In this document: in pieces, positions 28,269 through 51,243 of the stretch
Layout of the letters: every line of letters begins with the position of its first letter
Position numbering within the stretch: the stretch's first letter is position 1
Assembly: GCA_963771965.1 (NCBI GenBank)
Contig: CAVYVM010000003.1
Span: 43,381-107,380 of the forward strand
Direction: 5' to 3'
DNA: 64,000 bases
Origin: an uncultured Acidobacteriaceae bacterium
Lineage (GTDB): Bacteria > Acidobacteriota > Terriglobia > Terriglobales > Acidobacteriaceae
Made by a program: the position numbers and the translations under genes
The notes under the pieces: generated by a model
What the model was told of the DNA's origin: nothing
The model's database searches: none
Seen by the model: only the letters and a program-made list of their open reading frames with translations

Positions 28269-28543
28269 AAAGGCCTCCGGGCGGTGCGCTGTATCTTTAA
28301 AATGATATAACATACCCGCTCACTCGGGGCGACGCTTGCGGCGCGAAAGCTGCATTTTGCGAACGAGTCAGATTTCCCAAATGCCTTTCTTTCTAGATGG
28401 AACTCAACCAGCGAGTACCAGCCAGATACCATCCACTCCTAACAGTTCCTTAGTGCAAATAAGCGATTCTTGCCCGCTGAGCGATTCTCGAATAACATTA
28501 GGTATCCAGTGGTGGGCGGCCGCAAGGGAGGAGATGAACTCGT

Positions 28544-32069: not shown

Positions 32070-32125
32070 GGCGAACTCTTCTCAACTCGCTCTTGAGCGT
32101 CAGTGCTGACGAGGAGGCCCAATGC

Positions 32126-33208: not shown

Positions 33209-34699
33209 CTAGCCAGCAATTTCAAGCACAGCCCGGTACAAGCTGCGAATGCCCTGCTCAAAGCTGCTGATCGCGACGCGCTCATTTGGGCCATGAACGC
33301 CTCCCAGATCTGCAGGGCTGATTAGAAAGGGCACCCATCCATAACAGGGCACCCCCGCGGAGCGGAAGTAACGCCCGTCGCTTGCACCGGGCGACAAAAT
33401 CGGAGCCACGATGCCGCCTTGTTGTCCGACGGCATGCTTTGCCAGAGCAGCGAATTCCTGTGTTTGAAAATCAGATGTGTTAGCCGGGTGGGCGTGAGAA
33501 GGCAATTGAGAGACGCGTATGCCATCTTTGGAAAGTTCACTAGCAATTTTCTCCCGCATGGTCTCCAAGTCAGATCCCGGCAAGAGCCTAATGTTCAGAA
33601 CTGCCCGCGCCTGGCCTGGCACAAGGTTTCCTTTCATGCCACTTTCAAGGACAGTGAGGGCGATCGTGTCATGAAGCATTGCGTTGACCGCAGGTATCTT
33701 GGACAAGTGTCGCGCAGTCAACCGCGATTTCAGAAGCGGGAATCGAAATAGAAAACGTGCCGGACCCTCGGCCTCACTCGCCAGGCTTTCGAGAAAACAC
33801 TTGGTGGCTGGCGTAATTCGCATTCCGAACTTCATGCTTAACACACGGTTCAAGGCCGCAACCAAACGTGCGGGCGGCGCGTCTCCGGAGATAATGCTCG
33901 CATGATGTCCGTTTGACTCCGCTACACATTCCAACTCTAGGCACGCCTTTTCAGCGACCGCAATCGCATGCACGTCACGGCCATGCCATAGGCCGCGCAC
34001 GGAAAACCCGCCTTCGCCGAACACCAACCCACACTGCAACAGTTCGGGGCGATGCTTCAGCATCCACTCCGTGCCAAAGTGCCCGCCAGCCTCCTCATCG
34101 GCAACAACCAGCAGAATAACATCGCGGTTTAGCGGCACCCGCAACTTGCGAAGCAGAATGACAATCATCAAGTGGGCGATCCCAAGCCCTTTCAGATCCA
34201 ACACCCCTCTTCCGTAAATATATCCTTCACGGACGGTCCCAGAAAATGGGTTAATCGCTGAGTCCCACTCTTGCCGCGAGACAGGGACGACGTCGCTGTG
34301 ACTAAGCAGAATGAGCGGAGGTTTGATTGAGCTACCCGTACTCAGTCGCGCTATAAGATTGATTCTTCCGGGTGCAGACTCCAGTAACTCGGCAGCGATC
34401 CCAGCATCTTGCAACACACTGGCTAGCCATCTCGCGGCGTCGGCTTCGCAGCCTGCCAACCATGGCGCATTTTGGATTTCCGTAGAGCTTAGGCGAAGAG
34501 GGTCATTGACGGTAGGAAATCGGAGGTATTGTCTAAGTAAGTCAACCGCCTGTTCGAGAACCGCAGGCCACGATAGCTCTGACTCCAGCACAGGAAGGTC
34601 TGATAGAGAAGATTGTGGTACCACGTAGCCACCGTTTAAAGGCGATCTTTCACCTTCTGAATTGCTGTGGGATATTGAAGCCTGCTGGTTTTGGAGCAA
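33209..34699 (-). CDS. M20/M25/M40 family metallopeptidase
   Basis: LLSHSDVVP, GRGVLDLKG, VADEEAGG and GASDGRYF motifs of the ArgE/DapE/ACY1/CPG2 clan. Confidence 0.8.
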   Translation of the reverse strand: MLQNQQASISHSNSEGERSPLNGGYVVPQSSLSDLPVLESELSWPAVLEQAVDLLRQYLRFPTVNDPLRLSSTEIQNAPWLAGCEADAARWLASVLQDAGIAAELLESAPGRINLIARLSTGSSIKPPLILLSHSDVVPVSRQEWDSAINPFSGTVREGYIYGRGVLDLKGLGIAHLMIVILLRKLRVPLNRDVILLVVADEEAGGHFGTEWMLKHRPELLQCGLVFGEGGFSVRGLWHGRDVHAIAVAEKACLELECVAESNGHHASIISGDAPPARLVAALNRVLSMKFGMRITPATKCFLESLASEAEGPARFLFRFPLLKSRLTARHLSKIPAVNAMLHDTIALTVLESGMKGNLVPGQARAVLNIRLLPGSDLETMREKIASELSKDGIRVSQLPSHAHPANTSDFQTQEFAALAKHAVGQQGGIVAPILSPGASDGRYFRSAGVPCYGWVPFLISPADLGGVHGPNERVAISSFEQGIRSLYRAVLEIAG

Positions 34700-34710: not shown

Positions 34711-35622
34711 CTATGCGGTTCCTGCCACAGAAGACAATTTGATCGGGCGCTCTCCTTGAACCGTAGTTGGGGCCCGCAAGAACCGTGCAATCAATGAATT
34801 AACCCGATCCGGATCTTCTTCGTGAGGAAGATGGCCACAGTCGGCAAGAATTTCCAACTGAGCATGCTGCATCTCCCTCTTAAACCTCTGCGCATTGTCT
34901 ACCGGCAATATGTGGTCCTTAGCTCCCCAAATAATCAGAGTCTCGTGAGGTATCGCTGGAATAATCGCTGCCAGCCGACTTTCGTCAAACTCTTCCAAGG
35001 TAGCTAGAAAGCTCCGCTCGCCCGATTCCGACCGAAGCAACTGAAAATAAGAATCAACTAGATCCGGGGTAGCACGGCTCCTGTCCTTATAGGAGCGACG
35101 CAGCCCAGCTGCAAAGATTCGCCTGCCAAACATGTCCGATCGCAACGTCGGCTCCAGCAGCTTTCTAAGCACGTTGATACGCAGTAGTTGCTCAATGGAG
35201 TGTCGTCCTCCTGGGTAGCCTACGCTGTTAATCAATACGAGTCGGTCTACTTTTTCTGGACACTTCCTTGCCAGCGCGAGGGCAACTGCGCACCCGTATG
35301 AGCTGCCCGCTATACTGACTCGCGACAGCCTAAGCTTCTCCATCAGTTGCAAAACAAATTGCACATGAGCTTCGGGGCTATAAAGTCCTGCTACCTTCGA
35401 TGAACGTCCGAAGCCCTTCATATCCAGTGCTATAACATCCAGAGACGTTGATAACTCAGGTATGTTACGACGCCAGGTAAGTAAGGAAAGAGGTGCACCA
35501 TGCAACAAGATGACTGGAGCACCTACTCCCCTGCGCACAAAACAAGCGTCCCCGTCGGGAAGAGTAATTGTTTGAGCGTCGTGATAGCTAGCGCTCATCA
35601 CCTGAGATGAAATAGATGGCAT
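34711..35622 (-). CDS. alpha/beta hydrolase
   Basis: HGAPLS oxyanion region, GSSYG nucleophile elbow (GxSxG), C-terminal CGHLPHEE. Confidence 0.8.
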   Translation of the reverse strand: MPSISSQVMSASYHDAQTITLPDGDACFVRRGVGAPVILLHGAPLSLLTWRRNIPELSTSLDVIALDMKGFGRSSKVAGLYSPEAHVQFVLQLMEKLRLSRVSIAGSSYGCAVALALARKCPEKVDRLVLINSVGYPGGRHSIEQLLRINVLRKLLEPTLRSDMFGRRIFAAGLRRSYKDRSRATPDLVDSYFQLLRSESGERSFLATLEEFDESRLAAIIPAIPHETLIIWGAKDHILPVDNAQRFKREMQHAQLEILADCGHLPHEEDPDRVNSLIARFLRAPTTVQGERPIKLSSVAGTA

Positions 35623-37219: not shown

Positions 37220-37501
37220 GCAAGCGCCTGCTCCACTAACCCTACCTAGTATTCCACCATGCAATGCCATGCTGTTCTTACTATTACACTAGCTAGGTAA
37301 CAGCAGAGGCACTCGGCTACCTACTGTGGGCTCGCGTACCCAACGCCATTTACTTCACCGTGCAAGGCGTTGCTACCACCTCAGATCTACACATACTAAC
37401 GTACCCAATAGACCATTATTGGTGACAACGGTCTATTGAGCTAATTACAAAGCAAGGGTACTGTTCTAACTCTTAAGATCATTTATTTTCCCCTTGAAAG
37501 G

Positions 37502-38977
37502 ATGGACACAATGAGCACGACAGCTTGGAGAGAGACTTCAGTACAAGCTCGGCTGGAAGAGCGATTACCCGACGGAATCGTTCGCTGCCATTTGTCTCCG
37601 CGGAACTGTACCATTCGCGAAGGCCAGCATGGCTTTTGTGGGGTTCGCGCGAATCGGAACGGGCGGCTCGTGAGCCTTAATTATGGCAAAAGCGTTCATC
37701 TTACCCAGGAGACGATCGAGACCGAGGCAGTAAATCACTACGCTCCCGGAACGCCGATTGTGTCCATGGGAAATGTAGGGTGCATGTTGAATTGTGTCTA
37801 CTGCCACAATTGGAAAACATCCCAGGCGAAGCATGTTGAGGACAAAGATGTCTACTACTACACGCCGGAGGGGGTGGTCGAGACGGCGCTGCGGCATAAC
37901 ATCCGGGTTATATCATGGACTTACAACGACCCTGTAGTGTGGCATGAATTTGTCCGAGACACAGCAAAGCTCGCACAGCAAGCCGGCATCATCAATCTTT
38001 ACAAGTCAGCCTTCTTTATTACGCCCGAGGCTATTGAAGAGCTGCTGCCCTATATCGACATCTTTTCCATTTCAGTGAAGTCTATCGACCCCGAATACTA
38101 CAAAAAGTATACGTCTGGTTGGCTTCAGCCGGTTTTGGATGGAGCGAAGCAGGTATTTCAGGCTGGTAAGCATCTGGAGCTGAGCACGCTGATGATTACC
38201 GACATCAGCGACAACGAAGATACCGCGCGGCGGGTGGCTGATTGGGTGCTCACCAATCTGAGTTCTGCTGTGCCGATCCATTTTGTCCGATTCCATCCTG
38301 ACTACAAACTTCGGGACACCATTCGCACGCCAGTGGACCGGCTGGAGAGGGCGCGCGAGGTGGGATTGGAAATGGGTCTGGAGCATGTCTATCTTGGCAA
38401 TGTATACGACACAAAGTGGTCGAACACCTATTGCCGCGGCTGCAACCAATTGTTAGTGTCGCGCTATGGTTTGAACGCCAGCATCGTCGGTCTGGATTCT
38501 AAAGGCCACTGCACTCAGTGCGGTCGCGATGCACACTTCAAGTTGTTGGCACCTCAAACGCAGAAAGAGGCCTCGGCCGCCGTTAATATGGGGCCTTCGG
38601 CAGAGCATGTCATGAGGCAGTTTTACTGGCATGGCGATATTCGCTCGTTACACGCTCAGGTCCGCAATACGTCTACATCCCCTACAAGCCTCTTTCAACG
38701 CCGCCTTTTGAAGAATGGCACGTCCGAATGGAGCGAACTGCAGCTTATTGCTGGGGAGAGCTACCGTTTCATCGTTGCCAAGGCGTATGAGGAGGAAGTG
38801 GGTTGTGAAATTGGTTGCCCACCCGCGATCGAGTCGAACTTGCATGAAGTGTTTGATCGCGCACACTTTCCCACAGTGGCCGTGGAAGAGGCGGATGCCT
38901 CCACCGATATTTCGCCCCTGCCAATGTACCCAGGGCGACAGGTGGCGGTCAGACTAGCAGCAACCGGCACAGACTAA
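37502..38977 (+). CDS. radical SAM enzyme, AmmeMemoRadiSam (AmrS)/PflA-activase-like, with ~130-aa C-terminal extension
   Basis: CTIREGQHGFCGVR N-terminal Cys region, GCMLNCVYCHNW (CX3CX2C), C-terminal CRGC...CTQC zinc-ribbon-like pair. The likely true start is the ATG at 37511, after GAAAGGATGG. Confidence 0.8.
   Translation: MDTMSTTAWRETSVQARLEERLPDGIVRCHLSPRNCTIREGQHGFCGVRANRNGRLVSLNYGKSVHLTQETIETEAVNHYAPGTPIVSMGNVGCMLNCVYCHNWKTSQAKHVEDKDVYYYTPEGVVETALRHNIRVISWTYNDPVVWHEFVRDTAKLAQQAGIINLYKSAFFITPEAIEELLPYIDIFSISVKSIDPEYYKKYTSGWLQPVLDGAKQVFQAGKHLELSTLMITDISDNEDTARRVADWVLTNLSSAVPIHFVRFHPDYKLRDTIRTPVDRLERAREVGLEMGLEHVYLGNVYDTKWSNTYCRGCNQLLVSRYGLNASIVGLDSKGHCTQCGRDAHFKLLAPQTQKEASAAVNMGPSAEHVMRQFYWHGDIRSLHAQVRNTSTSPTSLFQRRLLKNGTSEWSELQLIAGESYRFIVAKAYEEEVGCEIGCPPAIESNLHEVFDRAHFPTVAVEEADASTDISPLPMYPGRQVAVRLAATGTD
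37781..37804 (+). other. CX3CX2C radical-SAM cluster motif (CMLNCVYC)
   Basis: Read directly from the translation. Confidence 0.9.
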
Positions 38978-39018: not shown

Positions 39019-40593
39019 GTGGACACAATGATTGACACGCAAGCGCCTCCAAACTCAGAACGCAACAACTCGGCATGGCGTCATGAACGGGACTATAAGG
39101 TTGTCCACTTAGGCGATCGGTCGGCACTGTTCTTGACTGGCAACCATCGGATATTCCTAACGTCAGCAGATCTCGGCAAGCGTCTTGAAAACGGACTGGA
39201 TCAAATGACCGGAGAGGAAGCGCAGGAGTGGTCAACCCTGGAACAGAACGGGTTGCTGACAGATGTACATCGCGAACGTCTGGCCGCATCCACTTACGAA
39301 GACGGCGCCAACCTGGCGCTTAACATCAATCTGACTGGCACCTGCAACTTAGCCTGCACGTACTGTTTTGCCGATGGAGGCGATTACGGGCGCATTTACA
39401 AAAAGATGGAAATCCACACGGTTGATTACATTTTCGAGTTCATTCGCAAGCATGTCACTAAGTCGAGGAGGGTTCGCTTTGAATTCTTTGGCGGCGAGCC
39501 CCTTTTGAACTTTCCAATCATTAAAGAGGTATGTGAACGTAGCGACCGCGTGGCAGAAGAGACCGGTATTCAGTTTATCAATCGAATCTCAACCAACCTT
39601 ACGGTAATGCCCGCCGGCACAATTGAGTTATTCCACGCGAAACACTTCATCGTCTCAGTATCGATTGACGGTGGCGCCGATACGCACAATCAGAATCGGC
39701 CCACAAAAGGAGGCAAGGACTCCTTTGCGGGAATTATTGAGAACTGCAAGAAGGTGAGAGAGCGTGGCGACGCTGTGACCATGGTTGCCCGCATGACGGT
39801 GGTTTCGGATGAGCCTCCGCTGATTGAAAATGTGATGCAGCTGTATCAGCTCAACATTTTCGACTACTTTCAGATCTATCCTGCGGTCACTGCGCCGGGT
39901 ACGGGCGGATGCGGCGGACAGCCAAAGCTGGTGCAGTTAGCGTCTTCCGAAGCGCCGCCGAAACCTGACGGCCCCACGATGAACGGAGGCTTTCTCAATC
40001 AACTCGCGGAGTTTGTAAAAATCTATCCAAGTCTGTTCAACAGTGGAAATCGCTTTCGAGGGGTCCTGGAATACGAGCGCATCGCCGAGATGTTGCTCGA
40101 TGGCAAGATGGCGCTGGGGTTCTGCGGTGGCGGCGGTACCTACTTCACGTTTTCTCCAGACGACTCCATCATGCCCTGCCATCGAATGGTGGGTGATACG
40201 CAGTTTCAAGTGGGCTCGGGCGCTACGGGTCTAAGCGGAGACACTCGCGACTGGACCCTGCCCGTCGACGCCCACCCTATTTGCTCAAATTGCTGGGCCC
40301 GGTATGTCTGCGGGGGCAATTGCAGGCAGGAGAACTTCCTGGCCAGCGGTACGCTTCGCGGTCTTAACGAAGAAACCTGCCGCTATCAGCAACAACTTTT
40401 AGAGAAAGTGATCTTCCATTTGGGACTAGCTCCCGCGCAATATCTGCATTCAACCCGGGACTTGGAAGATATGTTTGTTTCCTGCGGGCGTCCGGTAATG
40501 AATAACCTGCGTCAAGGAGTCGAATCGAAGGCGACAAATCTCCGTTACTTCCAGTTGCTGACATCGGCGCAGCCTGAAATGCAAACCGCGTAA
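39019..40593 (+). CDS. radical SAM / SPASM-domain maturase-like enzyme
   Basis: CNLACTYC (CX3CX2C), FFGGEPLL, C-terminal auxiliary-cluster Cys pattern (CGGGG...MPCH...CSNCWARYVCGGNC...C). The ~100-aa N-terminal extension lies before the core. The likely start is the ATG at 39028. Confidence 0.85.
   Translation: MDTMIDTQAPPNSERNNSAWRHERDYKVVHLGDRSALFLTGNHRIFLTSADLGKRLENGLDQMTGEEAQEWSTLEQNGLLTDVHRERLAASTYEDGANLALNINLTGTCNLACTYCFADGGDYGRIYKKMEIHTVDYIFEFIRKHVTKSRRVRFEFFGGEPLLNFPIIKEVCERSDRVAEETGIQFINRISTNLTVMPAGTIELFHAKHFIVSVSIDGGADTHNQNRPTKGGKDSFAGIIENCKKVRERGDAVTMVARMTVVSDEPPLIENVMQLYQLNIFDYFQIYPAVTAPGTGGCGGQPKLVQLASSEAPPKPDGPTMNGGFLNQLAEFVKIYPSLFNSGNRFRGVLEYERIAEMLLDGKMALGFCGGGGTYFTFSPDDSIMPCHRMVGDTQFQVGSGATGLSGDTRDWTLPVDAHPICSNCWARYVCGGNCRQENFLASGTLRGLNEETCRYQQQLLEKVIFHLGLAPAQYLHSTRDLEDMFVSCGRPVMNNLRQGVESKATNLRYFQLLTSAQPEMQTA
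39343..39366 (+). other. CX3CX2C radical-SAM cluster motif (CNLACTYC)
   Basis: Read directly from the translation. Confidence 0.9.
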
Positions 40594-40618: not shown

Positions 40619-41920
40619 ATGGGTGACTTAGCGAAAGTTCGCCGCAATATTCATACTTACCCCTTTAAGTATCGGCATATCCCTGAAGATGATTTCTTTG
40701 CACTGGAAAAAGGGTCCATTTATATCCACATACCGTTCTGTAGCACCAAGTGCTACTTCTGCGATTACACCGTGTACACAGACAAGACTGCGGGTGTGCG
40801 CGCCCAGTACGTGGATGCACTCTGCAAGGAAATCGCGCGGTTCTCTGAGGACCGCACCTTCCCCGCGTTCGAAATCGAAGCGATTTACTTGGGGGGCGGA
40901 ACGCCTGGGCTTCTGACTGGCGATCAGTTTGAGAAGATCCTTACCACCTGCCGCGATAACTATCAGCTCACATCAGACTGCGAAGTCTGCGCGGAATTCG
41001 ATCCTGCGTCCGTCGAATACGAAAAGGTGCAACAGATGCTCGAGGCAGGGTACACGCGACTTAGTATGGGCGTGCAGTGCTTCGACGACGACATCCTGCG
41101 ACAAGCGAACCGTCCTCATAACCTTGAGTCGGTCTATTCGGGATACGAAGCTATGCGCAAAGCGGGATGCAAGCATCTGAACGTCGATCTTATTTATCCC
41201 ATGCCTAACCTCACGCAGGAAATATGGCAAACCTCCGTCCAGAAGGCGATCGCCCTCAAGCCCGACTGCATTACTGCTTACGGACTGGAAGTCTGGCCTG
41301 GGACGGCTTATTACAACTGGCTCAAGAAAGGAAAAATCACGCTACCAGACGGAGATTCGGAAGTGAAGATGTACAAGTACGCGGTTGACGAACTTGAGGC
41401 TGCCGGCTTCGTACCCCGCAGCAATAGCGGCTACTACCATCCTGAGCGCACACCAAAATATTGTCGATTCCTGGACTTCTATTGGCGCACTTGGCCCATG
41501 ATCGGCTTCGGCGTTTCCTCCAAAACTGTCATTCACAACCGCTTGTGGACGAATATCAAGCCGCTCAATGAGTACATCGATCGCGTCGAAAAAGGCGACT
41601 TGGTGATGGATTTCGCAACATTCATGTCCAAGGACACGGAAATGAGGCGAGTAATGATTCGCGGTCTCAAGATGTGCGAGGTTGCAAAAGAAGATTTTGC
41701 AGAGCGGTTTGGAATTCCAATGGAACGTGTGTTTGCTTCTGAAATCCAGAGCCTTGTGGATGATGGTCTTGCAGTAGATGAGCCGGAACGGGTCATTCTG
41801 ACCAAAAAAGGCAGGACCTATGGAACCAACGTATACGAGCGGTTCTATACCAAGGAAGACCTTCGCGCGCCGAACCCCGGCGAAGTGCAATTCGGAATCT
41901 CAATGCTTGTTTTGAACTGA
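40619..41920 (+). CDS. radical SAM enzyme, HemN/HemW-like (class C family)
   Basis: YIHIPFCSTKCYFCDY (CX3CX2C with the HemN-type context), GGGTPG, and an RLSMGVQCFDD-like region. Confidence 0.85.
   Translation: MGDLAKVRRNIHTYPFKYRHIPEDDFFALEKGSIYIHIPFCSTKCYFCDYTVYTDKTAGVRAQYVDALCKEIARFSEDRTFPAFEIEAIYLGGGTPGLLTGDQFEKILTTCRDNYQLTSDCEVCAEFDPASVEYEKVQQMLEAGYTRLSMGVQCFDDDILRQANRPHNLESVYSGYEAMRKAGCKHLNVDLIYPMPNLTQEIWQTSVQKAIALKPDCITAYGLEVWPGTAYYNWLKKGKITLPDGDSEVKMYKYAVDELEAAGFVPRSNSGYYHPERTPKYCRFLDFYWRTWPMIGFGVSSKTVIHNRLWTNIKPLNEYIDRVEKGDLVMDFATFMSKDTEMRRVMIRGLKMCEVAKEDFAERFGIPMERVFASEIQSLVDDGLAVDEPERVILTKKGRTYGTNVYERFYTKEDLRAPNPGEVQFGISMLVLN
40739..40762 (+). other. CX3CX2C radical-SAM cluster motif (CSTKCYFC)
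   Basis: Read directly from the translation. Confidence 0.9.
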
Positions 41921-41940: not shown

Positions 41941-42657
41941 ATGTTGATGTACGGATGGATGAAATTTGTCGAATTGGCGCCTGAACGCTATGACTGGGCT
42001 GTGAGGCTCATGACGGCGGGAAGGTTGGATCGACTGAAGGACCGCATTGCCAGCATGGTCAACGCCAATGACCGGGTTCTCGACATTGGGTGCGGTACCG
42101 GGACCCTGGCTTTGCGGATGCTGCGTCGAGGAGCGAATGTCACAGGGCTGGACATGTCTGAGCACATGCTCGGAGTAGCGCGCAAATATGCAGATGGCGA
42201 AGGACTAGGTTCCCGGCTTGTGCTCATCAAAGACAGTGTGACCCAGCTTAGCAAACATGCCCAGCCGGGCAGCTTCGACTGCATCGTGTGCACCATGGTT
42301 TTGGGCGAGCTAAGTTCCGAGTACGTGAAGTTTGTCTTTGACGAATGTTTCAACTTGTTGCGGCCCGGAGGGCGTTTGCTGATTGGGGACGAAGTGTGGC
42401 CGGAAAATCCTTTCATGCACGCCATTTACCGAGCCATGCTCGTCGTGTCGTGGATCCCACAGTTTCTCCTTCTCCGCCGGGTGAACTATCCAGTCAGCGA
42501 CATGCGGCGGCTTGTTCAGGATGCGGGTTTCAAAATCAATCACGTTGAAAACTGGCTTATGACTTCTTTCAGCCTCATCGCAGCAACAAAATCTGAGGAC
42601 CTAAAAGCGAACAGTCCAAGCTTCTCTAGCATCGAGCAGATGCAATGGGTGCAATAG
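41941..42657 (+). CDS. class I SAM-dependent methyltransferase
   Basis: VLDIGCGTGTL motif I and LRPGGRLLIGD post-II region. Confidence 0.8.
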   Translation: MLMYGWMKFVELAPERYDWAVRLMTAGRLDRLKDRIASMVNANDRVLDIGCGTGTLALRMLRRGANVTGLDMSEHMLGVARKYADGEGLGSRLVLIKDSVTQLSKHAQPGSFDCIVCTMVLGELSSEYVKFVFDECFNLLRPGGRLLIGDEVWPENPFMHAIYRAMLVVSWIPQFLLLRRVNYPVSDMRRLVQDAGFKINHVENWLMTSFSLIAATKSEDLKANSPSFSSIEQMQWVQ

Positions 42658-42663
42658 AAGGGG

Positions 42664-43908
42664 TTGCTCATGGGGCGACTAAGTGGGTTCTTGTGGGAAA
42701 CATTCCACACTTTCTTCAGAAACTTCAATTTCCCGTGTGAACTTGGATTGATTCGAGTAGGCAATCCAACGGTCGATTCCCCTGTATTCGTAAGTGGAAA
42801 CTACAGTCTTGTGGTTGAGAGATTGTTACGCGTGCTGCAGGGTACGGACTGCTATTTGCTCGTAGCCAATTCTCGCGGCTCCAACGTTTGGTGTGCGGCG
42901 GGGATGAATGAATATACCGAACACGACATTGTGGATGCCATCAATGTCAGCCACTTATCCAAGATAGTCCGTCATAGGCAAATTATCGCTCCGCCCTATG
43001 CCGCCCCCGGAGTTGACATTCGTGCCATCAAGCGCGAAACCGGATTTCACATTAAATGGGGGCCCACACATCTCGACGACATCCCGGCATACATCAAGCA
43101 CGGCTACAAACGAAGCAACGAGATGGTCCAGGTGCAATTTGGGTTTCGCGACCGCCTGGAGCAGGCGCTCGCGAACACCTGCACCTATTCTCTGACGATT
43201 GCGATCGGGTTGCTGTTCTTTCCAAAATTTATTCTGGGACTGATGGCCCTGATCGCGACCGGGCACCTGCTCTGGTTTTGCGGCTGGAACTGGCTTCCGG
43301 AAGAGCGTTACTGGCGGCGTACCGCGACCGTTGCCGCCATCATGATGCTGCTCGTGGCCGGCTTCGGAAATTTGCGAGGTTGGTCAGCGTCGCAGTTTGC
43401 GATTTGGCTCGTTACTACATTCATCCTGGTTGTGGTAATGGGAATCGACGGATGCGGCAGCTCCGCCGTCTACAAGACCACCGCGGTGCATTGGATCACC
43501 AAGGGTAACTACGACAGCCTGTTCGATCCGGTCATCGATCCCGAGAGGTGCACAAATTGCATGCAGTGCGTCCTCGTATGCCCTATGAACGTGTTCGCGG
43601 CCAAAAGGACCGGCGACTATAAGGTGGTCGCCGTACATCCGGACAATTGCATCGATTGTATGGCCTGCGTGAAGCAGTGCGACGACGACGCGTTTTTCAA
43701 TCGCTCCACGGAATTTAAGGGCGACGTTAAGAGTGTTCCGAACCTAGCGGTAATAATGACCCGCGACTGGTCGCACTTGAAGGACGAAGATCGCTGGCTA
43801 AACCATCCGACAACTTTACGAAACGGGCTTCCAGTCTTGGACACGTCTTGCAACGGTAAGGCCACGCAAACAGCGGAGCAGACTCATGGATCGGTTGCTT
43901 TTTCCTAA
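42664..43908 (+). CDS. fused HgcA-like corrinoid protein / transmembrane domain / HgcB-like 2x[4Fe-4S] ferredoxin
   Basis: N-terminal CdhD/CFeSP-like domain with cap-helix motif GSNVWCAAGM (HgcA consensus N(V/I)WCA(A/G)GK), plus DSPV..NY, HR..I.P...APGV, TGF...GP. About 4 TM helices at residues ~173-262. Ferredoxin motifs CTNCMQCVLVCP and CIDCMACVKQC. Confidence 0.7.
   Translation: MLMGRLSGFLWETFHTFFRNFNFPCELGLIRVGNPTVDSPVFVSGNYSLVVERLLRVLQGTDCYLLVANSRGSNVWCAAGMNEYTEHDIVDAINVSHLSKIVRHRQIIAPPYAAPGVDIRAIKRETGFHIKWGPTHLDDIPAYIKHGYKRSNEMVQVQFGFRDRLEQALANTCTYSLTIAIGLLFFPKFILGLMALIATGHLLWFCGWNWLPEERYWRRTATVAAIMMLLVAGFGNLRGWSASQFAIWLVTTFILVVVMGIDGCGSSAVYKTTAVHWITKGNYDSLFDPVIDPERCTNCMQCVLVCPMNVFAAKRTGDYKVVAVHPDNCIDCMACVKQCDDDAFFNRSTEFKGDVKSVPNLAVIMTRDWSHLKDEDRWLNHPTTLRNGLPVLDTSCNGKATQTAEQTHGSVAFS
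42883..42903 (+). other. HgcA-type cap-helix motif NVWCAAG (Cys77 codon at 42892-42894)
   Basis: aac gtt tgg tgt gcg gcg ggg, read directly from the sequence. Confidence 0.85.
43549..43683 (+). other. two CX2CX2CX3C [4Fe-4S] ferredoxin motifs (HgcB-like module)
   Basis: CTNCMQCVLVCP ... CIDCMACVKQC. Confidence 0.85.
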
Positions 43909-44758
43909 TAGCTTCGGGCTTTCGCACCAGGGCTTCGAGATCGAAGTCGTCCCGGAGGGTTGCCGGCGATACCCCGAGCTGCTCGAAAGCATTCAGGAGC
44001 AGGTCTTACGGATCGCAACCTTCTCTCGTGGCTGGGATGAACAGAGTCTGGACCACATGCGGACCTATTTCAAGTTGGGTCCACTCTACGAGGCAAACTC
44101 TTTAGTGCTGATCAAAAAAAACGACACGCTGGTGGGATTGGTTGGTAGCGTGAATGATTGGCGTGTCGATGGGCGTTCCTTGATCCATCTTTGCAGCCTG
44201 GGATTGCTGCCGTCGGCCCAGCGGCGTGGATTTCTGCCGGTTCTGCTCGGAATCCTTTGGACCATTACATTACGCCGGCCAGAGATTAACGAAGATTTTC
44301 GTCAGGGTCGGAGTTATATCTCCGCTATCACGCAGAGCCCCTACCTTTATGCCGCATTGCATAAGTTGTTCGATCTCTATCCTTCTCCAGACCATTCGGT
44401 TGTTCCCGCAGAGGTGCGCGACCTGGCCCATGCGGTAGTGGATCGCTTTGACGAAGAACTGCAGTTGGAGGAGGAAACGTTGACGCTGAGAAACGAATGC
44501 CGATTTTTTTATCAGAAGACGCCTTACAGTACCAGCCGGGAGTTGAACTCGTTCTGTGACCAAAACCTTAACTATCGCAACGGGGATGTCTTTGTACTGA
44601 TAGGTCGAGTAATTCAAGAACGAGTGGAACAGTATATCGAGTTTGTTGCGAACACACATTCCGACCTATATCTCCGTTTCTGCGTGGCCCTTGAAGAACA
44701 TGGTTATAAGGACATTCGTCAGACGAATATGACCGTGGGGATTGCATCCCGTGGCTAA
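43886..44758 (+). CDS. hypothetical protein, possibly GNAT-fold acyltransferase
   Basis: Overlaps the upstream stop by 23 nt. A LVGLVGS...LCSLGLLPSAQRRGFLPVLL segment resembles the GNAT beta4-alpha3 CoA site. Weak call. Confidence 0.4.
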   Translation: MDRLLFPNSFGLSHQGFEIEVVPEGCRRYPELLESIQEQVLRIATFSRGWDEQSLDHMRTYFKLGPLYEANSLVLIKKNDTLVGLVGSVNDWRVDGRSLIHLCSLGLLPSAQRRGFLPVLLGILWTITLRRPEINEDFRQGRSYISAITQSPYLYAALHKLFDLYPSPDHSVVPAEVRDLAHAVVDRFDEELQLEEETLTLRNECRFFYQKTPYSTSRELNSFCDQNLNYRNGDVFVLIGRVIQERVEQYIEFVANTHSDLYLRFCVALEEHGYKDIRQTNMTVGIASRG

Positions 44759-46478
44759 AAGCAAAGATCTCTATACCCTTTGTTATTCGCGAAACATTGG
44801 AATCCTTACCGAAAAGGAACAGCAGCGTCTTGGCCAGGCGGCGGTCGCCATAGCCGGGATGGGCGGCATTGGCAGCAATACTGCGGTGTTACTGGCACGG
44901 ATGGGGGTCAGCAAATTCCGGCTCGCCGATTTCGATACGTTCGAATATGCCAACGTGAACCGCCAATACGGAGCGTTTCTTGACACCATCGGTCACCCAA
45001 AAGTTGCGGTCATGGAAAAAGAGCTGCGACGGATTAACCCGAAGGCTGAAGTTACAGTTGAGACCGGAGGGTTCACCGCCGATAACGCTGAACGATTTCT
45101 AACTGGGGTTGACTTAGTCATCGATGCTATCGATTTTTACTCCATCGAAGCACACCTGGAACTGCATCGCCAGGCCCGTAAACGAGGGCTCTACGTGTTC
45201 ATGGGATCTCCCGTTGGTTTTAGCGCTTGTCTTCAGATCTTTGATCCCGAAGGCATGAGCCTGGAAGAGTATTGCGGAATTGAGCCGGGCATGATGGGGC
45301 TGGAAAAACAATTACGTTATGCGTGCGGAGTAGTGCCGAATTTGGCCCACATCGATTACTTCGACGTGTCGCAGGGACCCTCGAACACAAACTTCCTAAA
45401 GAAGACCGGCCCATCGCTGGCTTGCGCGACAACCCTCGCCGCATCGCTGGTAGCAAGCGAGGTCGCGATCATGCTGGCGAGCCGCCGCAAGCCAAAAGCC
45501 ATTCCGTACACTTTTCAATTTGATCCTTATACCTTTCGCTACGAAAAGGTATGGCTTGAAAAAGGAATGGCGAGCTTCGATGTAGACCGCGCTTTAAGCC
45601 GCCTTCAGGATCGATCCTCTTTAATTCCTCTGGTCTTGAAGTACCTCTACAAGCGCCGGAAAACACATCGTGCAAAGGTGAACGGCGCGGAGCTCTACTA
45701 CGAAATGGAGGGCGAGGGCGATAATCTGCTGCTCATCGGCCCGCTTGGCGCTGACTCAAGTTTCTGGGCGCGGCAGGTACAGCAACTGGCCCAGCATTTC
45801 CGAGTGATCACTTTCGACAGCCGTGGCACAGGGTTCTCCACTGCGTGCAAACAAAGCCACTCCACCGTCGAGATTGCAGAGGATGCAATCGCCCTTCTGA
45901 AAAAACTTGGCATACGACGTACCCATGTGGTTGGACTCGCTTTAGGAGGCCTGGTTGCCCAACACATCGCCGTACTTCAGCCATCTCTTGTCGACCAGTT
46001 AGCGCTCGTATCCACCTATGCCAAGGCTGATGAGGTTATTAGTGCAACCGTGTCAGGCTGGCAGCAGATCGCGTCGAGGCAGGGCATGGACGAGTTATTT
46101 GACGCCTCCGTGGAATCGCTGTTTTCAAGTGAGTATGTGCAAAGCGCGAACGGCGAAATCGACAAGCTCCGCACGTTCTTTCATTTGAACCTGCAGGACC
46201 CAATGAATTTTATCTATCAGAGTACCGCAGGAATTCTTCATGATTCCAGGGGCCTGCTATCGAAGATCGCATGCCCCACCCTGGTATTGCATGGTGGAGC
46301 GGATCGCGTCGTCGACCTGTCTCATGGAAAGGAATTGGCTGCGGGCATTCGGAGTTCAAGGCTTGAAGTGATGGAACGAGCGTCGCACTTTATGAATTGG
46401 GAGCGCCCGGAAGGCTTCAACGAGACAGTCTTTCAATTCCTCACAGCCTCACCGGAAGTCTCGCAGCGTTCAGCATGA
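44742..46478 (+). CDS. ThiF/MoeB/E1-like adenylyltransferase fused to alpha/beta hydrolase
   Basis: N-terminus: VAIAGMGGIGSNTAVLLARMGV (GxGxxG Rossmann) ...DFD....NVNRQ. C-terminus: FDSRGTGFS and LGGLVAQ (nucleophile-elbow-like), LHGGADRVV, ASHFMNWERPE. The start codon is uncertain (TTG at 44742 or GTG at 44751). Confidence 0.75.
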   Translation: MHPVAKSKDLYTLCYSRNIGILTEKEQQRLGQAAVAIAGMGGIGSNTAVLLARMGVSKFRLADFDTFEYANVNRQYGAFLDTIGHPKVAVMEKELRRINPKAEVTVETGGFTADNAERFLTGVDLVIDAIDFYSIEAHLELHRQARKRGLYVFMGSPVGFSACLQIFDPEGMSLEEYCGIEPGMMGLEKQLRYACGVVPNLAHIDYFDVSQGPSNTNFLKKTGPSLACATTLAASLVASEVAIMLASRRKPKAIPYTFQFDPYTFRYEKVWLEKGMASFDVDRALSRLQDRSSLIPLVLKYLYKRRKTHRAKVNGAELYYEMEGEGDNLLLIGPLGADSSFWARQVQQLAQHFRVITFDSRGTGFSTACKQSHSTVEIAEDAIALLKKLGIRRTHVVGLALGGLVAQHIAVLQPSLVDQLALVSTYAKADEVISATVSGWQQIASRQGMDELFDASVESLFSSEYVQSANGEIDKLRTFFHLNLQDPMNFIYQSTAGILHDSRGLLSKIACPTLVLHGGADRVVDLSHGKELAAGIRSSRLEVMERASHFMNWERPEGFNETVFQFLTASPEVSQRSA

Positions 46479-46537: not shown

Positions 46538-47281
46538 ATGAAGAAAGATAACGATGACAACCACGCAATCGAAAAGCGCTCTCAGCCGCGTTGGCGCAAG
46601 TATAGCTCTAAGATCTTTTCCTGGTTCAACAAGGAACAATATGAGCTCTATCTGGCGGGGTGCGTGGCGTTTTCATTCGGGGCGAATGCGTTTATTGCCT
46701 CACATCTCGGTACGGACCCCCTGGACGTCTTTTCTCTAGGCCTGAAGAAGCATATGCCTATGACCATTGGCATAGCGCAGGGAGGGTTTGCGGCTTTGTG
46801 CCTGGTGGTGTGGGGCATATGGAATAGAAGAAGACCTCCGCTCTCTCCTTTTTTTACTTTCTTCTTTTGTGGTTCCTTGATTGATCTCTGGATGTGGAGT
46901 GGCATTGCTAATCAACTGCGATTAGGCCCCTATCTTCTGCTCGTGCTGGGCGTGATGCTCTGTGGAATAGGATCGGCACTGATCATCATGAGCGGCATCG
47001 GAATTCGAGCCATGGATCTCGTTGCCATCACGATGTACGAAAGGCTCGGCCAGCCATTCTGGCTGTGTAAAGGAATACTGGAAGTGATGTTGCTCGTGTC
47101 TGGATGGCTGATGGGGGGACCCGTAGGAATCGGAACAGTCGCGTTCCTGGGGGTTGTCGGGTGGTCGATCCAACCTATGATGTGGTTTGGCGGGCGCTAC
47201 TTTAGCCTGCCAAACTATGGTCTACGGCCTACCTCAGCCGCGCCTGACCGACTGGCGAATCAACAAGTGTACGGGCAATAG
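46538..47281 (+). CDS. integral membrane protein (YczE/YitT-like)
   Basis: About 6 hydrophobic segments. A GTDPLDVFSLGL-like motif resembles the YczE family. Moderate confidence. Confidence 0.55.
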   Translation: MKKDNDDNHAIEKRSQPRWRKYSSKIFSWFNKEQYELYLAGCVAFSFGANAFIASHLGTDPLDVFSLGLKKHMPMTIGIAQGGFAALCLVVWGIWNRRRPPLSPFFTFFFCGSLIDLWMWSGIANQLRLGPYLLLVLGVMLCGIGSALIIMSGIGIRAMDLVAITMYERLGQPFWLCKGILEVMLLVSGWLMGGPVGIGTVAFLGVVGWSIQPMMWFGGRYFSLPNYGLRPTSAAPDRLANQQVYGQ

Positions 47282-47302: not shown

Positions 47303-48025
47303 ATGAAACCGACCGGGCTACAAAAACGTTCTTCTAAGCGTGGGCGGTCGGACAGCGGCACGCAGTGGAGCTATAGGCATGACTTGGTTTTCTTTGGGGA
47401 ACTGCTGCACAAAAGACATTATATTTCCGGCGTCGACGGGAACCTATCCGTCCGCTTGGATTCCACGCGCGTGTTGACGACGCCGACTGGAATGAGTAAA
47501 GGATTCATGAAGCCGGCGGATATGGTGGTTGTAGATCTTGATGGCGAGAGAGTCAGCGGCACACATAAACCCTCGAGCGAACTTGAAATGCATCTCACCA
47601 TTTACAAGCTTCGGCCGGATGTCGGGGCGGTAATCCACGCTCATCCCTGTACCGCAACCGGCTTTGCATCCTCAGGACTTGGCCTGACCGAGGCTGTTTG
47701 TTCGGAACTCGTATTAACCTTGGGTGGAGTACCTCTGGCAGAGTATGCGCTTCCCGGCAGCGCAGAGCTTAGTGAGTCTTTGCGGCCATTTATACGGAGC
47801 CACGACGCGATTCTCATGGAAAACCATGGAGTCGTCGCCTACGGAGCGACATTAATGCAGGCATATCTCAACATGGAGTCCGTCGAGCACAGCGCGATGA
47901 TAATGCTTGTTACCAAGATTATAGGCCGGGCGAATACTCTCAGCGAAAAAGAGGTAGGCCGCCTGCTCGCACGCAGATCGAAAGACAGGTCTCTGGTTCA
48001 ACCTTCAGTAGCGGAGATGATGTAA
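47303..48025 (+). CDS. class II aldolase/adducin-domain protein
   Basis: ISGVDGNLSVRL, SSELEMHLTIY, AVIHAHP, MENHGVV motifs of the FucA/MtnB/AraD family. Confidence 0.8.
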   Translation: MKPTGLQKRSSKRGRSDSGTQWSYRHDLVFFGELLHKRHYISGVDGNLSVRLDSTRVLTTPTGMSKGFMKPADMVVVDLDGERVSGTHKPSSELEMHLTIYKLRPDVGAVIHAHPCTATGFASSGLGLTEAVCSELVLTLGGVPLAEYALPGSAELSESLRPFIRSHDAILMENHGVVAYGATLMQAYLNMESVEHSAMIMLVTKIIGRANTLSEKEVGRLLARRSKDRSLVQPSVAEMM

Positions 48026-48099: not shown

Positions 48100-49425
48100 T
48101 TGTTACTAAATAACTCGAGAGACCTTGCGATGGAACAAGCTGCTCCAGCCTTAGTGCAATCGCCAACGGAAAAATCCGACACCTACATTGTGATCGTTGA
48201 ACCCTTCACGTCTCTTTTTCGCTACGTACAAATTGCCCATCGGCGCTTTCGAACATTGGTAATCAGTGCCAATCCACAGGACTGCCTGGCGCGCGAGAAG
48301 GCATACAATTCTTCTATCGGCCAGCCGGAGGTCACCCACATTGATCGGTTCATACAGTGCGATACGTCTGACGTTTCGGTTATGCGCCAAGCGCTGGAGC
48401 CTATGAGGACAGAACTTGCTGGCGTTTTAGGAGCGCAAGAAACATTTTTGGCTGTGAGCTTGGAGTTGGGCTGGAGCCTGGGATTTGACTATGCCAAGCC
48501 GGAAGATGCGATTACCCATCGTTTAAAGAGCGCCATGCGGCGCCGGTATCAAGAACGCGGGGTACCGTCGCCACGGTTTTTCGTCGCAACTACGTTGGAA
48601 CAAGCCAAGCAGTCGTGGGAGGACCTAGGACGCGATTGCATGGTCAAAATGGTGGACGCTGACTCCAGCATGAACATTTTTCGGGCAACTACTTTAGACG
48701 AACTCGAATCCGCCTGGGACATCATCATAAACAACCGCAGAAATATAAAGAGCCTGATACCACTTTCCAAAGAGGTAGTGCTCGAAGAATTTGTTACCGG
48801 CCGCGAGCTTACGGTGGAAGGCTATACCCAGGGTGACCGCGTCGTCTGCCTGAATTTCTCGGAAAAAATTACCGAGAGTTCGTTCGTTGTGGTCGGTCAT
48901 CTGATTCCCGCTATGGTGTCCGCAAAAGAAGAGCAAATCTTGAGCAAATTGGCCGATCAAGTTGTCCGCGCCGAAGGAATGCGCAACAGCGTATTTCATA
49001 TGGAGGTACATCTACAGGGCGATAAGCCATATGTAATTGAGTGCACTTCGCGGCCTCCGGGCCAGCATGCTGCGGAAGTGATCTATCGTTCGCATGGCTG
49101 CGACCTCATGGACATCGGCGTTTCGCTCGCAGTCGGAGAGCCGGTCTTTGACGAACTCAGTCCACCGAAGAAACATTTTGCCATGTTGGCACTATATTCT
49201 CTGCGCGAAGGCATCTTCGAAAAGCTCGAAGGAGAGGAAGAGTTGAAGCGCCGCGGAGGTCTGTTTCACTTGCATCTCGACGTAAAGCCCGGAGATCGAA
49301 TCGAGCCGTTGTCGACCTTTCGCCAGAGATATGGATTCGTCATTCTTGAAGACGATACGGCGGAGGGAGTGCGCGAAAAAGCCCGTTGGGCGCGAACTCA
49401 CCTGCACCTGGCGCTGAAGAATTGA
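48100..49425 (+). CDS. ATP-grasp domain ligase (L-amino-acid-ligase-like), copy 2
   Basis: Colinear with 28544..29821 over the full length (LGFDYAK.EDA, CMVKMV, AWDIIINNRR, YVIECTSRPPG, GVREKA.W). The likely start is the ATG at 48130. Confidence 0.75.
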   Translation: MLLNNSRDLAMEQAAPALVQSPTEKSDTYIVIVEPFTSLFRYVQIAHRRFRTLVISANPQDCLAREKAYNSSIGQPEVTHIDRFIQCDTSDVSVMRQALEPMRTELAGVLGAQETFLAVSLELGWSLGFDYAKPEDAITHRLKSAMRRRYQERGVPSPRFFVATTLEQAKQSWEDLGRDCMVKMVDADSSMNIFRATTLDELESAWDIIINNRRNIKSLIPLSKEVVLEEFVTGRELTVEGYTQGDRVVCLNFSEKITESSFVVVGHLIPAMVSAKEEQILSKLADQVVRAEGMRNSVFHMEVHLQGDKPYVIECTSRPPGQHAAEVIYRSHGCDLMDIGVSLAVGEPVFDELSPPKKHFAMLALYSLREGIFEKLEGEEELKRRGGLFHLHLDVKPGDRIEPLSTFRQRYGFVILEDDTAEGVREKARWARTHLHLALKN

Positions 49426-49470: not shown

Positions 49471-49560
49471 TGGTGCCGGGAGGGGGAATCGAACCCCCAC
49501 AGTCCTTTTCGGACCTGCGGATTTTAAGTCCGCTGCGTCTGCCAATTTCGCCATCCCGGC
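49471..49560 (-). tRNA. tRNA-Leu (anticodon TAA), CCA encoded
   Basis: The reverse complement reads GCCGGGA...CTTAAAA anticodon loop...long variable arm...GGTTCGATTCC T-loop...TCCCGGCACCA. Confidence 0.9.
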
Positions 49561-50925: not shown

Positions 50926-51243
50926 GGCAAGGTCCCAAATGCATTGGCATAGCCGTGCAAGCACCCAGGGCCTTCCGCAAGGAATCGTCTCTTCCGGAAA
51001 GCATAGGTCCAACCTCCACTCTAAGCCGGGGAAAGAGGTCTTATCAATAAAGCTGCGCAGTATGGGATTACGCTGGTAACGCGGCTATCCTTGTAATGTC
51101 CTGTTTCGATGAGCTTCATTCCAGCCAAGAGAGCGGATTGACTATCACGACTCTTAAGATTGGGAGGATGGCTTCGTCGATAAGTAACTTATAATCCAGT
51201 GACTTAAGGGTTTTCCCTTCAAGTGAAACGGGGGATTTTTTGA

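Follow-up and report, generated by a model that had tools for sequence, protein, structure and literature searches.

The window analysed here, a stretch of 64,000 nucleotides (nt) from an uncultured Acidobacteriaceae bacterium (assembly GCA_963771965.1, contig CAVYVM010000003.1, positions 43,381 to 107,380), carries at 42664..43908 the gene of an HgcAB-like fusion protein. Its product, 414 amino acids (aa) long when read from a TTG codon, consists of a corrinoid domain, four transmembrane (TM) helices, a ferredoxin domain for two [4Fe-4S] clusters and a C-terminal extension (positions are those of the window, on its forward strand (+) unless marked (-)). Directly upstream, at 41941..42657, lies the gene for CpaM, a class I S-adenosylmethionine (SAM)-dependent methyltransferase of 238 aa, and the pair stands within a cluster of biosynthetic genes. 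An earlier reading of the same sequence, here called the original prediction, had likened the fusion protein to the mercury-methylation proteins HgcA and HgcB. The protein is, with near certainty, a member of the curated NCBIfam HgcAB-like family and a paralogue of HgcA plus HgcB; together with CpaM it probably serves to methylate a natural product rather than mercury.

The NCBIfam equivalog model NF043039 (HgcAB_like) aligns residues 11-344 with profile positions 2-349 of 350, at 361.9 bits against a cutoff of 285 (E=4.6e-108). The HgcA model NF040863 matches residues 22-267 at 159.3 bits (E=1.3e-46), under its cutoff of 275, and the HgcB model NF040864 gives 38.7 bits with the whole protein and 40.8 bits with the tail alone, both under the cutoff of 99. 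A match to NF003195, the model for acetyl-CoA synthase gamma, the large subunit of the corrinoid iron-sulfur protein (CFeSP), reaches 51.9 bits against a cutoff of 306 and is limited to the last ~120 profile positions. Among Pfam models, CdhD (PF03599) matches residues 28-142 at 28.7 bits (gathering score (GA) 24.8), and Fer4 and dicluster ferredoxin models match residues 289-344. One polypeptide thus unites an HgcA-like corrinoid domain, a TM domain and an HgcB-like dicluster ferredoxin, as judged by Pfam and by an AlphaFold2 (AF2) model. Members of its own subclade are already annotated as 'HgcAB-like fusion protein' in NCBI, for example in Breoghania sp. L-A4 and Bradyrhizobium sp. Ai1a-2. 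NCBI curators had earlier defined the families of the fusion protein and of CpaM, as a pair, and neither is a new family; since both genes sit in the curated families HgcAB_like and CpaM, the novelty attributed to them in the original prediction was too high.

Read at the junction of the two genes, the DNA gives the methyltransferase stop codon TAG at 42655-42657, then AAGGGG, then TTG at 42664 and ATG at 42670. The true start of the fusion gene is probably the ATG at 42670, because the resulting length of 412 aa is that of a 97%-identical database protein (P0001). The gap between the genes is therefore 6 nt if counted from the TTG, as had been proposed, but 12 nt if counted from the more probable ATG. 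At its other end the fusion gene overlaps the next gene, which begins at 43886, by 23 nt, as the original prediction had stated.

The corrinoid-binding Rossmann-like domain spans residues 28-145 (42745..43098), as delimited by Pfam CdhD and by superposition on CFeSP. Within it, in the segment GSNVWCAAGMNE, lies the cap-helix cysteine Cys77 (codon TGT, 42892..42894, from the DNA and the alignment with HgcA), the predicted lower axial ligand of cobalt. To gather relatives of the HgcA part, 1.84 billion cluster representatives were searched exhaustively with HMMER, and the proteins found were sorted with NCBIfam models into fused-type and true HgcA proteins. In a joint alignment of seven HgcA equivalogs, which pass the NCBIfam cutoff, with eleven fused proteins, residues G33, P35, N46, G72, N74, W76, C77, A114, G116, G133 and P134 are invariant, and Cys77 lines up with the Cys of NVWCAAGKG in all seven equivalogs. 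Because its column is invariant throughout this alignment, Cys77 is the homologue of the HgcA cap-helix cobalt ligand, in agreement with its earlier equation with Cys93 of HgcA from strain ND132. It is likely that the fusion protein binds cobalamin.

The TM domain (residues 161-266, 43144..43461) comprises four helices and retains, in alignments of the clade to which the protein belongs, an LPEER loop, a DxCGS motif and the residues P212, E214, D262, C264 and G265. The HgcB-like dicluster ferredoxin domain (residues 289-346, 43528..43701) has Fer4 matches and the two CX2CX2CX3C motifs of the original prediction, C296/299/302/306 and C329/332/335/339; all eight cysteines are invariant in 113 clade members. 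Further cysteines conserved in the clade are C25, C63 and C264. The AF2 model of the fusion protein (predicted local distance difference test (pLDDT) 92.9, predicted template modelling score (pTM) 0.88) shows a Rossmann-like domain, membrane helices at 161-184, 187-206, 218-238 and 242-266, with which the hydropathy peaks agree, a ferredoxin domain, and an extension that is folded to about residue 392. Its best match in the Protein Data Bank (PDB) by Foldseek is the HgcAB model 9a0b_A (E=2.7e-11), and the CFeSP structures 2h9a, 4c1n, 2ycl and 4djd superpose with a root-mean-square deviation of 2.3-2.6 A over ~128 residues. A search of PDB sequences had returned no HgcA entry, only ferredoxins and CFeSP; 9a0b surfaced later through Foldseek. 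The original prediction had counted about four TM helices, as in HgcA. Four are indeed found here by AF2 and hydropathy, but HgcA itself has been described with five (PMC11588087). With four helices rather than five, the fused ferredoxin domain and the corrinoid domain should, if the model is correct, both face one side of the membrane.

Within the HgcAB-like family the protein belongs to a tight subclade, from which scores fall from 366 to 204 bits at the next relatives and which amounts to about three representatives at 50% clustering. The 113 clade members share, invariantly or nearly so, the cap-helix motif NVWCA(A/V)GMNE (with one NIWC variant), the LPEER loop, DxCGS in the last helix, and the sequence KGDVKS...RDWSHL..EDRW. 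The latter belongs to a clade-specific C-terminal extension (43702..43908, defined from the clade alignments) that lies beyond the NF043039 model; about 60 aa long, it is kept within the clade and is absent from other HgcAB-like clades and from HgcB. Identities of the fusion protein are 25-29% to HgcA, 32-38% to other fused clades and 46-97% inside its own clade, and the nearest named relatives are Acidobacteriaceae metagenome-assembled genomes. In a neighbour-joining tree of 112 sequences, a rough one with a midpoint root, no bootstrap and no CFeSP outgroup, all unfused HgcA proteins with the GK motif form one clade and the window clade is a monophyletic branch within the fused radiation. This agrees with Lin et al., who recovered fused forms as a separate clade. 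Taken with the hidden Markov models (HMMs) and Foldseek, the tree places the N-terminal domain within the HgcA/CFeSP superfamily and inside the fused-HgcAB radiation; the HgcA-type corrinoid domain of the original prediction is thus upheld by NCBIfam, Pfam CdhD, Foldseek and the tree alike.

CpaM is a constant companion of the fusion gene. The methyltransferase of the window scores 248.1 bits on NF043040 (corrinoid protein-associated methyltransferase CpaM; cutoff 180), matches Pfam Methyltransf_25/11 and contains the SAM motif VLDIGCGTG. For comparison, scans that covered JGI metagenomes and a single genome from each species yielded 40 loci (here given L numbers), and L047 and L048 were added from a context look-up; 38 of these loci hold a clade member at least 44% identical. 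All 38 have CpaM, and in 36 of 37 the distance from its gene to the fusion gene downstream is at most 400 nt. Three other HgcAB-like clades (L016, L017, L046) likewise have cpaM immediately ahead of the HgcAB-like gene. Moreover, the sample holds 18 natural fusions of CpaM to HgcA(B)-like proteins, always with the methyltransferase at the N-terminus, of which P0082 and P0033 belong to the window clade. These fusions argue strongly that CpaM and the HgcAB-like protein would form a physical complex. For true HgcAB, Zheng et al. (2024) showed that Co(I) receives its methyl group from SAM and not from methyl-tetrahydrofolate, with Co-S(Cys) ligation in the methyl-Co(III) state (PMC11588087). Because SAM serves Co(I) in this way, the simplest role for CpaM would be to bind SAM and load the corrinoid; the original suggestion that the neighbouring methyltransferase is a methyl loader gains from both the fusions and this precedent.

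The neighbourhood extends well beyond this pair and is conserved across six phyla, the hosts being Acidobacteriota, Actinomycetota (Streptosporangiaceae), Chloroflexota, Alphaproteobacteria (Bradyrhizobium, Stappia, Rhizobium, Telmatospirillum), Planctomycetota and Desulfobacteraceae; the recurrence in other genomes on which the original prediction depended is thereby observed. Neighbours were counted in the 18 clade loci with at least 7 kb of upstream and 5 kb of downstream sequence. A radical SAM (rSAM) enzyme of PflA/AmmeMemoRadiSam type occurs in all 18, and a SPASM-type rSAM, a HemN-like rSAM, a 290-aa GNAT-fold protein and a ThiF fusion each occur in 14. An alpha/beta hydrolase, whose gene in most related loci separates the HemN-like gene from cpaM, is found in 13 of the 18, an ATP-grasp ligase in 11, an M20 peptidase in eight (within the operon in L002, L003, L005, L008, L028 and L038) and a class II aldolase in three. 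A second ATP-grasp ligase homologue is present in L028, L023 and L038, and a gene for a YczE/DUF6198-like membrane protein recurs in nine clade loci, adjoining CpaM in L047. The remaining four loci and L047 are 'minimal', with the rSAM enzyme, CpaM, the fusion protein and often the YczE/DUF6198 membrane protein. Around them stand NRPS (nonribosomal peptide synthetase)-like adenylation, PCP (peptidyl carrier protein)-reductase and condensation proteins, an E1 dehydrogenase, a fatty-acid desaturase and a hexapeptide-repeat protein. The trio of rSAM, CpaM and fusion protein thus behaves as a cassette across different specialised-metabolite clusters.

Two further observations concern the rSAM member of the trio. 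In L040 (165-2662), a more distant HgcAB-like protein (39% identical, NVWCAAGMGE, 350.8 bits on NF043039) has an AmmeMemo-type rSAM gene immediately after it, so the pairing with this rSAM reaches beyond the GMNE subclade. In L049 (9001-10419) and L050 (9001-10422), the long-form rSAM, of about 470-490 aa, stands without CpaM or an HgcAB-like gene and beside a pyridoxal phosphate (PLP) enzyme of Cys/Met metabolism, and in L050 it also adjoins an ornithine/diaminopimelate (Orn/DAP) decarboxylase; these PLP-enzyme neighbours hint at an amino-acid-type substrate. A dedication of the long-form AmmeMemo-type rSAM to the HgcAB-like module was considered and rejected, since two of three sampled contexts lack the module.

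In the window itself the genes form a closely spaced operon on the forward strand, in which the three rSAM genes lie directly upstream of cpaM, between 37502 and 41920, which agrees with the setting among three rSAM enzymes described in the original prediction. The gene at 37502..38977 encodes the PflA/AmmeMemoRadiSam-type enzyme in a long form with an extra ~150 aa at the C-terminus (TIGR04337, 302.9 bits, cutoff 220); no AMMECR1 or Memo gene was found among the cluster genes scanned with Pfam and NCBIfam, though the enzyme passes TIGR04337. The gene at 39019..40593 encodes a radical SAM/SPASM-type, peptide-maturase-like enzyme with Pfam Radical_SAM and Fer4_12 matches, whose best NCBIfam matches are maturases of ribosomally synthesised and post-translationally modified peptides (RiPPs), all below cutoff. 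Neither the C-terminal domain of the former nor the N-terminal region of the latter has a match in Pfam or NCBIfam. The gene at 40619..41920 encodes a HemN-family enzyme (HemW/ChuW-like; Radical_SAM and HemN_C) that scores 213.6 bits on HemW (cutoff 205.4) and 217.9 on ChuW/HutW (cutoff 400), and only 20 nt separate it from the methyltransferase gene.

Downstream of the fusion gene and overlapping it, 43886..44758 encodes a divergent GNAT-fold protein of 290 aa (AF2 pLDDT 91.4; Foldseek matches to GNAT acetyltransferases, E ~2e-5). Its Pfam Acetyltransf_1 match is sub-threshold (18.2 bits, GA 20.7); it has no match in NCBIfam, nor any among PDB sequences even by profile. With 38 clusters in a set of 5.8 billion proteins, its family is roughly as rare as the fusion clade. 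Next come a ThiF-like adenylyltransferase fused to an alpha/beta hydrolase (44742..46478; Pfam ThiF 141.9 bits, Abhydrolase_1; NF006077 269.5, cutoff 266), whose ThiF-type domain has TcdA, UBA5, ThiF and MoeB as its nearest solved structures; the YczE/DUF6198-like membrane protein (46538..47281; NF052291 87.5 bits, sub-cutoff); a class II aldolase family protein (47303..48025; Pfam Aldolase_II 162 bits); and an ATP-grasp enzyme of L-amino-acid-ligase type (48100..49425; ATP-grasp_4 and LAL_C2, nearest structures BL00235 and BacD). A tRNA-Leu(TAA) gene at 49471..49560 (-), found by ARAGORN and Rfam 46 nt past the last cluster gene, forms the right edge.

To the left of the rSAM genes lie an alpha/beta hydrolase (34711..35622 (-), Pfam Abhydrolase_1), an M20 family peptidase (33209..34699 (-), Pfam Peptidase_M20 105 bits), two LuxR-type regulators in the left part of the cluster (31305-32944), an MFS efflux-type transporter that is not conserved in related loci (29911..31266 (-), Pfam MFS_1, TIGR00900 183 bits), and a second ATP-grasp enzyme of L-amino-acid-ligase type (28544..29821, ATP-grasp_4 and LAL_C2) that is the probable left edge. 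The cluster therefore probably spans about 28.5-49.4 kb of the window. A GC content of 0.51-0.54 over ~24-50 kb, below the 0.55-0.61 of the flanks, and the tRNA-Leu gene at the edge suggest that the cluster is a horizontally acquired and probably mobile island. A gene for a MacB/FtsX-type ABC permease (25812-28313 (-)) and one for a double PilZ-domain protein (49789-51012 (-)) flank it; both are without homologues in related loci and are probably outside. A YegD-like Hsp70-family protein (35918-37219, PRK11678 202 bits, sub-cutoff) is peculiar to the window and the three loci most closely related to it, L001, L014 and L021. In the 283-nt gap before the first rSAM gene, 33 nt (37409-37441) are 85% identical to positions 4754-4786 of L001 and could serve as a promoter or operator; outside this stretch, the intergenic sequences of the window are not conserved in L001 and L014. 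Rfam models found no cobalamin riboswitch in the window, and a fluoride riboswitch (crcB motif) at 46-124 (57.3 bits, gathering score 34) is unrelated to the fusion gene.

The three rSAM enzymes, the GNAT-fold protein, the ThiF-hydrolase fusion, the hydrolases, the peptidase and the ATP-grasp ligases together indicate that the product of the cluster is most likely a peptide- or amino-acid-derived specialised metabolite. The cluster may be RiPP-like, or it may build an amino-acid-derived product of dipeptide type. Pertinent here is a family of helical peptides of 67-82 aa with nine matches in eight related loci, encoded immediately before the first rSAM gene or before an ATP-grasp gene: L002:3429-3677(+), L005:20572-21099(-, two tandem copies), L007:2183-2416(+), L011:19839-20042(-), L023:9-242(+), L025:3106-3360(+), L028:17040-17366(+) and L032:804-1016(+). 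Seven of the nine end in ...ALCW, AACW, ILCW, AACL or VTVC, and the divergent L028 match ends in ...DSLFG without a Cys. The family, which has no match in Pfam or NCBIfam, provides candidate precursor or scaffold peptides. In the window, L001, L014 and L021 the YegD-like Hsp70 gene occupies the peptide position.

The published record on mercury bears directly on what the module might methylate. A true HgcB encoded beside a true HgcA in L020 scores 117.7 bits (cutoff 99) and has both the GVGC Cys, at the Cys73 position, and a GGCC end. Aligned with it, the fused tails have KGDVKS at the GVGC position and show no conserved C-terminal Cys. Cys73, Cys94 and Cys95 of HgcB have been reported as crucial for mercury methylation (PMC11588087). 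A preprint (10.1101/2022.07.06.499078) describes the CC end as nearly universal in HgcB and an N-terminal CU/CC extension as present in most HgcA proteins, and makes no mention of CpaM or the fusion family; this N-terminal extension is absent from the window protein. Organisms with fused hgcAB made no methylmercury in published tests (PMC4646819, PMC10087281, PMC7319479), none of them from the window subclade, which matches what the original prediction said of organisms with the fused form only. Its view that mercury is not the substrate gains support from the absence of the Cys73-equivalent and of the C-terminal Cys-Cys. Less can be drawn from the residue after the glycine of the cap-helix motif. 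The window reads NVWCAAGM and so falls outside the high-stringency HgcA motif N(V/I)WC(A/S)(A/G/S)GK of the Hg-MATE protocol (PMC10087281). The change from K to M had rightly been noted, but it is not diagnostic by itself and was dropped as a sign of non-function, since L044, a strong HgcA equivalog, shares it. Unfused HgcA proteins with NVWCAAGMGT are encoded in L044 (1500-2900, 426 bits on the HgcA equivalog model) and in L045 (2300-3800). A filter for motifs ending in GK would miss such apparently genuine HgcA proteins.

Taken together, these findings suggest that CpaM and the fusion protein may form a SAM-fed, Cys-ligated corrinoid carrier, reactivated by its own ferredoxin domain, that methylates an intermediate of the cluster product, a reading to which we assign about an even chance. 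The cytoplasmic corrinoid domain would hold cobalamin with Cys77 as the lower axial ligand, and the two-cluster ferredoxin domain at the C-terminus, which should face the cytoplasm as well, would reduce the cobalt to Co(I). CpaM would bind SAM and offer its methyl group to Co(I), giving CH3-Co(III), from which the methyl group would pass to a pathway intermediate of the surrounding cluster and not to Hg(II). Loading by CpaM and an organic acceptor other than mercury are the steps that we infer.

Several observations weigh against this reading. The cap region, which contains the proposed ligand, has the lowest AF2 confidence in the model (pLDDT 67). True HgcAB takes its methyl group from SAM without a separate methyltransferase (PMC11588087), and CpaM may therefore act otherwise. 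Searches of the window with an HMM built from related loci, with scans for C-terminal Cys and through intergenic open reading frames found no precursor peptide, nor was one detected in the closest relatives L001, L014 and L021. Other HgcAB-like clades are not in such clusters, as seen in three members. The long-form rSAM family is large, with 1048 matches, and two of three sampled contexts are without HgcAB-like genes or CpaM. Many of the hosts are aerobes, in which Co(I) and Fe-S chemistry is fragile. Finally, the adjacency of these genes could partly reflect co-transfer.

In a narrower form of the carrier hypothesis, the work that class B radical SAM methyltransferases do would be divided among the trio, as a split cobalamin-dependent radical methylase of three proteins. 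Here the AmmeMemo-type rSAM would generate a substrate radical that takes its methyl group from CH3-Co(III), after which the ferredoxin domain would return Co(II) to Co(I) and CpaM would reload it. The presence of this rSAM in every flanked clade locus, the 'minimal' contexts included, and its position directly downstream of the 39%-identical NVWCAAGMGE protein of L040 favour such a division of labour, and transfer of a methyl radical from Cys-ligated methylcobalamin is one of two mechanisms that have been proposed for HgcA (PMC11588087). However, the rSAM family is much larger than the module (1048 matches, with two of three sampled contexts beside PLP enzymes and lacking HgcAB-like and CpaM genes), the rSAM gene lies 2-5 kb away or on the opposite strand in several loci (L008, L028, L036), no rSAM-corrinoid fusion was seen, and other HgcAB-like clades are without the rSAM. 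We regard the split methylase as rather improbable. Similarly tentative, and rather improbable, is the broader proposal that HgcAB-like protein, CpaM and rSAM would constitute a portable methylation cassette, a membrane-anchored, Cys-ligated methylcobalamin carrier charged from SAM that discharges onto a substrate radical in at least two kinds of cluster, one with peptide or amino-acid ligases, to which the window belongs, and the other NRPS-like or lipid-related. If it were true, the HgcA superfamily would have methylation of natural products as its native chemistry, and one branch would methylate mercury as a derived or side activity.

The other explanations depart further from the carrier hypothesis. 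Methylation of mercury or of another soft metal or metalloid (As, Se, Te, Sn, Bi), for resistance or towards an organometal(loid) natural product, would fit the homology to HgcA and HgcB throughout, the retained Cys ligand, the presence of the K-to-M change in the bona fide HgcA of L044, and three conserved cysteines (C25, C63, C264) that could bind metal. Podar et al. also point out that the absence of methylmercury (MeHg) in P. furiosus is no proof that the fused protein is incapable of forming it. Yet the HgcA and HgcB equivalog cutoffs are failed, the HgcB Cys73-equivalent, the C-terminal CC and the HgcA N-terminal CU/CC extension are all missing, every tested organism with the fused form was negative, and no ars, mer or other metal-resistance family is among the Pfam and NCBIfam matches of the scanned cluster genes. 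The generic matches of CpaM do include arsenite and tellurite methyltransferase models, but its scores for ArsM and TehB are far under the cutoffs, and a metal(loid) substrate appears very unlikely. Little probability likewise attaches to reductive Co(I) chemistry, such as dehalogenation, reduction of an epoxide or other group, or demethylation, in the manner of QueG and the reductive dehalogenases (RdhA). Cobalamin and two 4Fe-4S clusters are the cofactors of QueG and RdhA, and this is the set predicted here; CpaM, with its intact class I SAM motif and with UbiG and UbiE as its next-best matches, could then be a conventional small-molecule methyltransferase that methylates the substrate from SAM in a separate step. 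The corrinoid domain, however, is of the methyl-carrier type of CFeSP and HgcA and not that of QueG or RdhA, Cys-on ligation has been shown for methyl-Co(III) HgcA (PMC11588087), and the repeated covalent joining of CpaM to the corrinoid protein is hard to square with separate steps. It is also quite improbable that the CpaM/HgcAB-like pair has a stand-alone or housekeeping role, for example in membrane lipid or quinone modification, and owes its place in the cluster to co-transfer. Such a role would suit a membrane-embedded protein with a partner that resembles quinone methyltransferases, a pair that is found in two different cluster types and that in other HgcAB-like clades (L016, L017, L046) has CpaM and otherwise unrelated neighbours. 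It does not sit well with a clade gene order kept across six phyla, with the 23-nt overlap with the GNAT-fold gene and the 20-nt distance from the HemN-like gene, or with a GNAT-fold family (38 clusters) about as rare as the fusion clade.

The reason for the existence of the HgcA/HgcB family, and the job of its non-methylating fused paralogues, have been long-standing questions since 2013-2015. Literature searches on CpaM, on the function of fused HgcAB and on a cluster of this kind returned only surveys and phylogenies, and the subclade motif and extension, the strict association with the rSAM, the multi-phylum cluster and the candidate Cys-Trp peptides are not described in the literature searched. 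The present locus ties one fused subclade to a multi-phylum biosynthetic cluster and a dedicated SAM methyltransferase and thereby yields a testable hypothesis, for which cultured carriers exist in Bradyrhizobium sp. Ai1a-2, Stappia sp. TSB10P1A, Breoghania sp. L-A4 and Kineosporia sp. NBRC 101731. GMNE-clade genes are carried by aerobic bacteria of soil and sea, and environmental surveys should leave them out when they score the potential for mercury methylation; the missing HgcB cysteines and the GMNE motif offer simple filters. Were the methyl group to end up on an unactivated carbon or on some unusual atom, the module would represent a cobalamin-dependent tailoring enzyme of a new kind.

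Comparison with known systems places the module among several partial analogues. QueG (mentioned in PMC13331322) and the reductive dehalogenases have the same cofactor complement in one polypeptide, but their cobalamin fold is unrelated, with no sequence or fold match, and their chemistry is reductive rather than methyl transfer. With the class B radical SAM methyltransferases (TsrM, Fom3, TokK) the analogy is functional only. These enzymes use SAM to methylate Co(I), pass the methyl group on to an intermediate of a natural product and draw electrons from an Fe-S cluster, whereas the cobalamin domain of the present system is of a different type, on a separate membrane-bound protein, and is accompanied by a separate class I methyltransferase. 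No polypeptide combining a B12-binding domain (PF02310) with rSAM occurs in the window, and Pfam and NCBIfam found no B12-binding match on the three rSAM proteins. The large subunit of CFeSP (AcsC/CdhE) of the Wood-Ljungdahl pathway has only the corrinoid-binding Rossmann-like domain in common with the window protein, which is without the N-terminal [4Fe-4S] domain, the TIM barrel and the small subunit, is anchored in the membrane and has predicted Cys ligation.

HgcA and HgcB of Pseudodesulfovibrio mercurii ND132 are closer, with a homologous corrinoid domain, cap-helix Cys, TM domain and dicluster ferredoxin, and with SAM as the likely methyl source (PMC11588087). In contrast to them, the window protein is a single polypeptide with four TM helices instead of five, a motif ending in M instead of K and 25-29% identity, and it has a dedicated SAM methyltransferase, a biosynthetic-cluster context and an occurrence in aerobes. 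The nearest systems are the fused HgcAB proteins with CpaM (NF043039; Podar et al. 2015, for example in Pyrococcus furiosus and Methanococcoides methylutens), which have the same architecture and in which CpaM is directly upstream or fused. Among the fused clades, the window subclade differs by the invariant GMNE after the Cys and the ~60-aa C-terminal extension, and it is around this subclade, and not around three members of other clades, that the cluster of radical SAM, ThiF and ATP-grasp genes is found.

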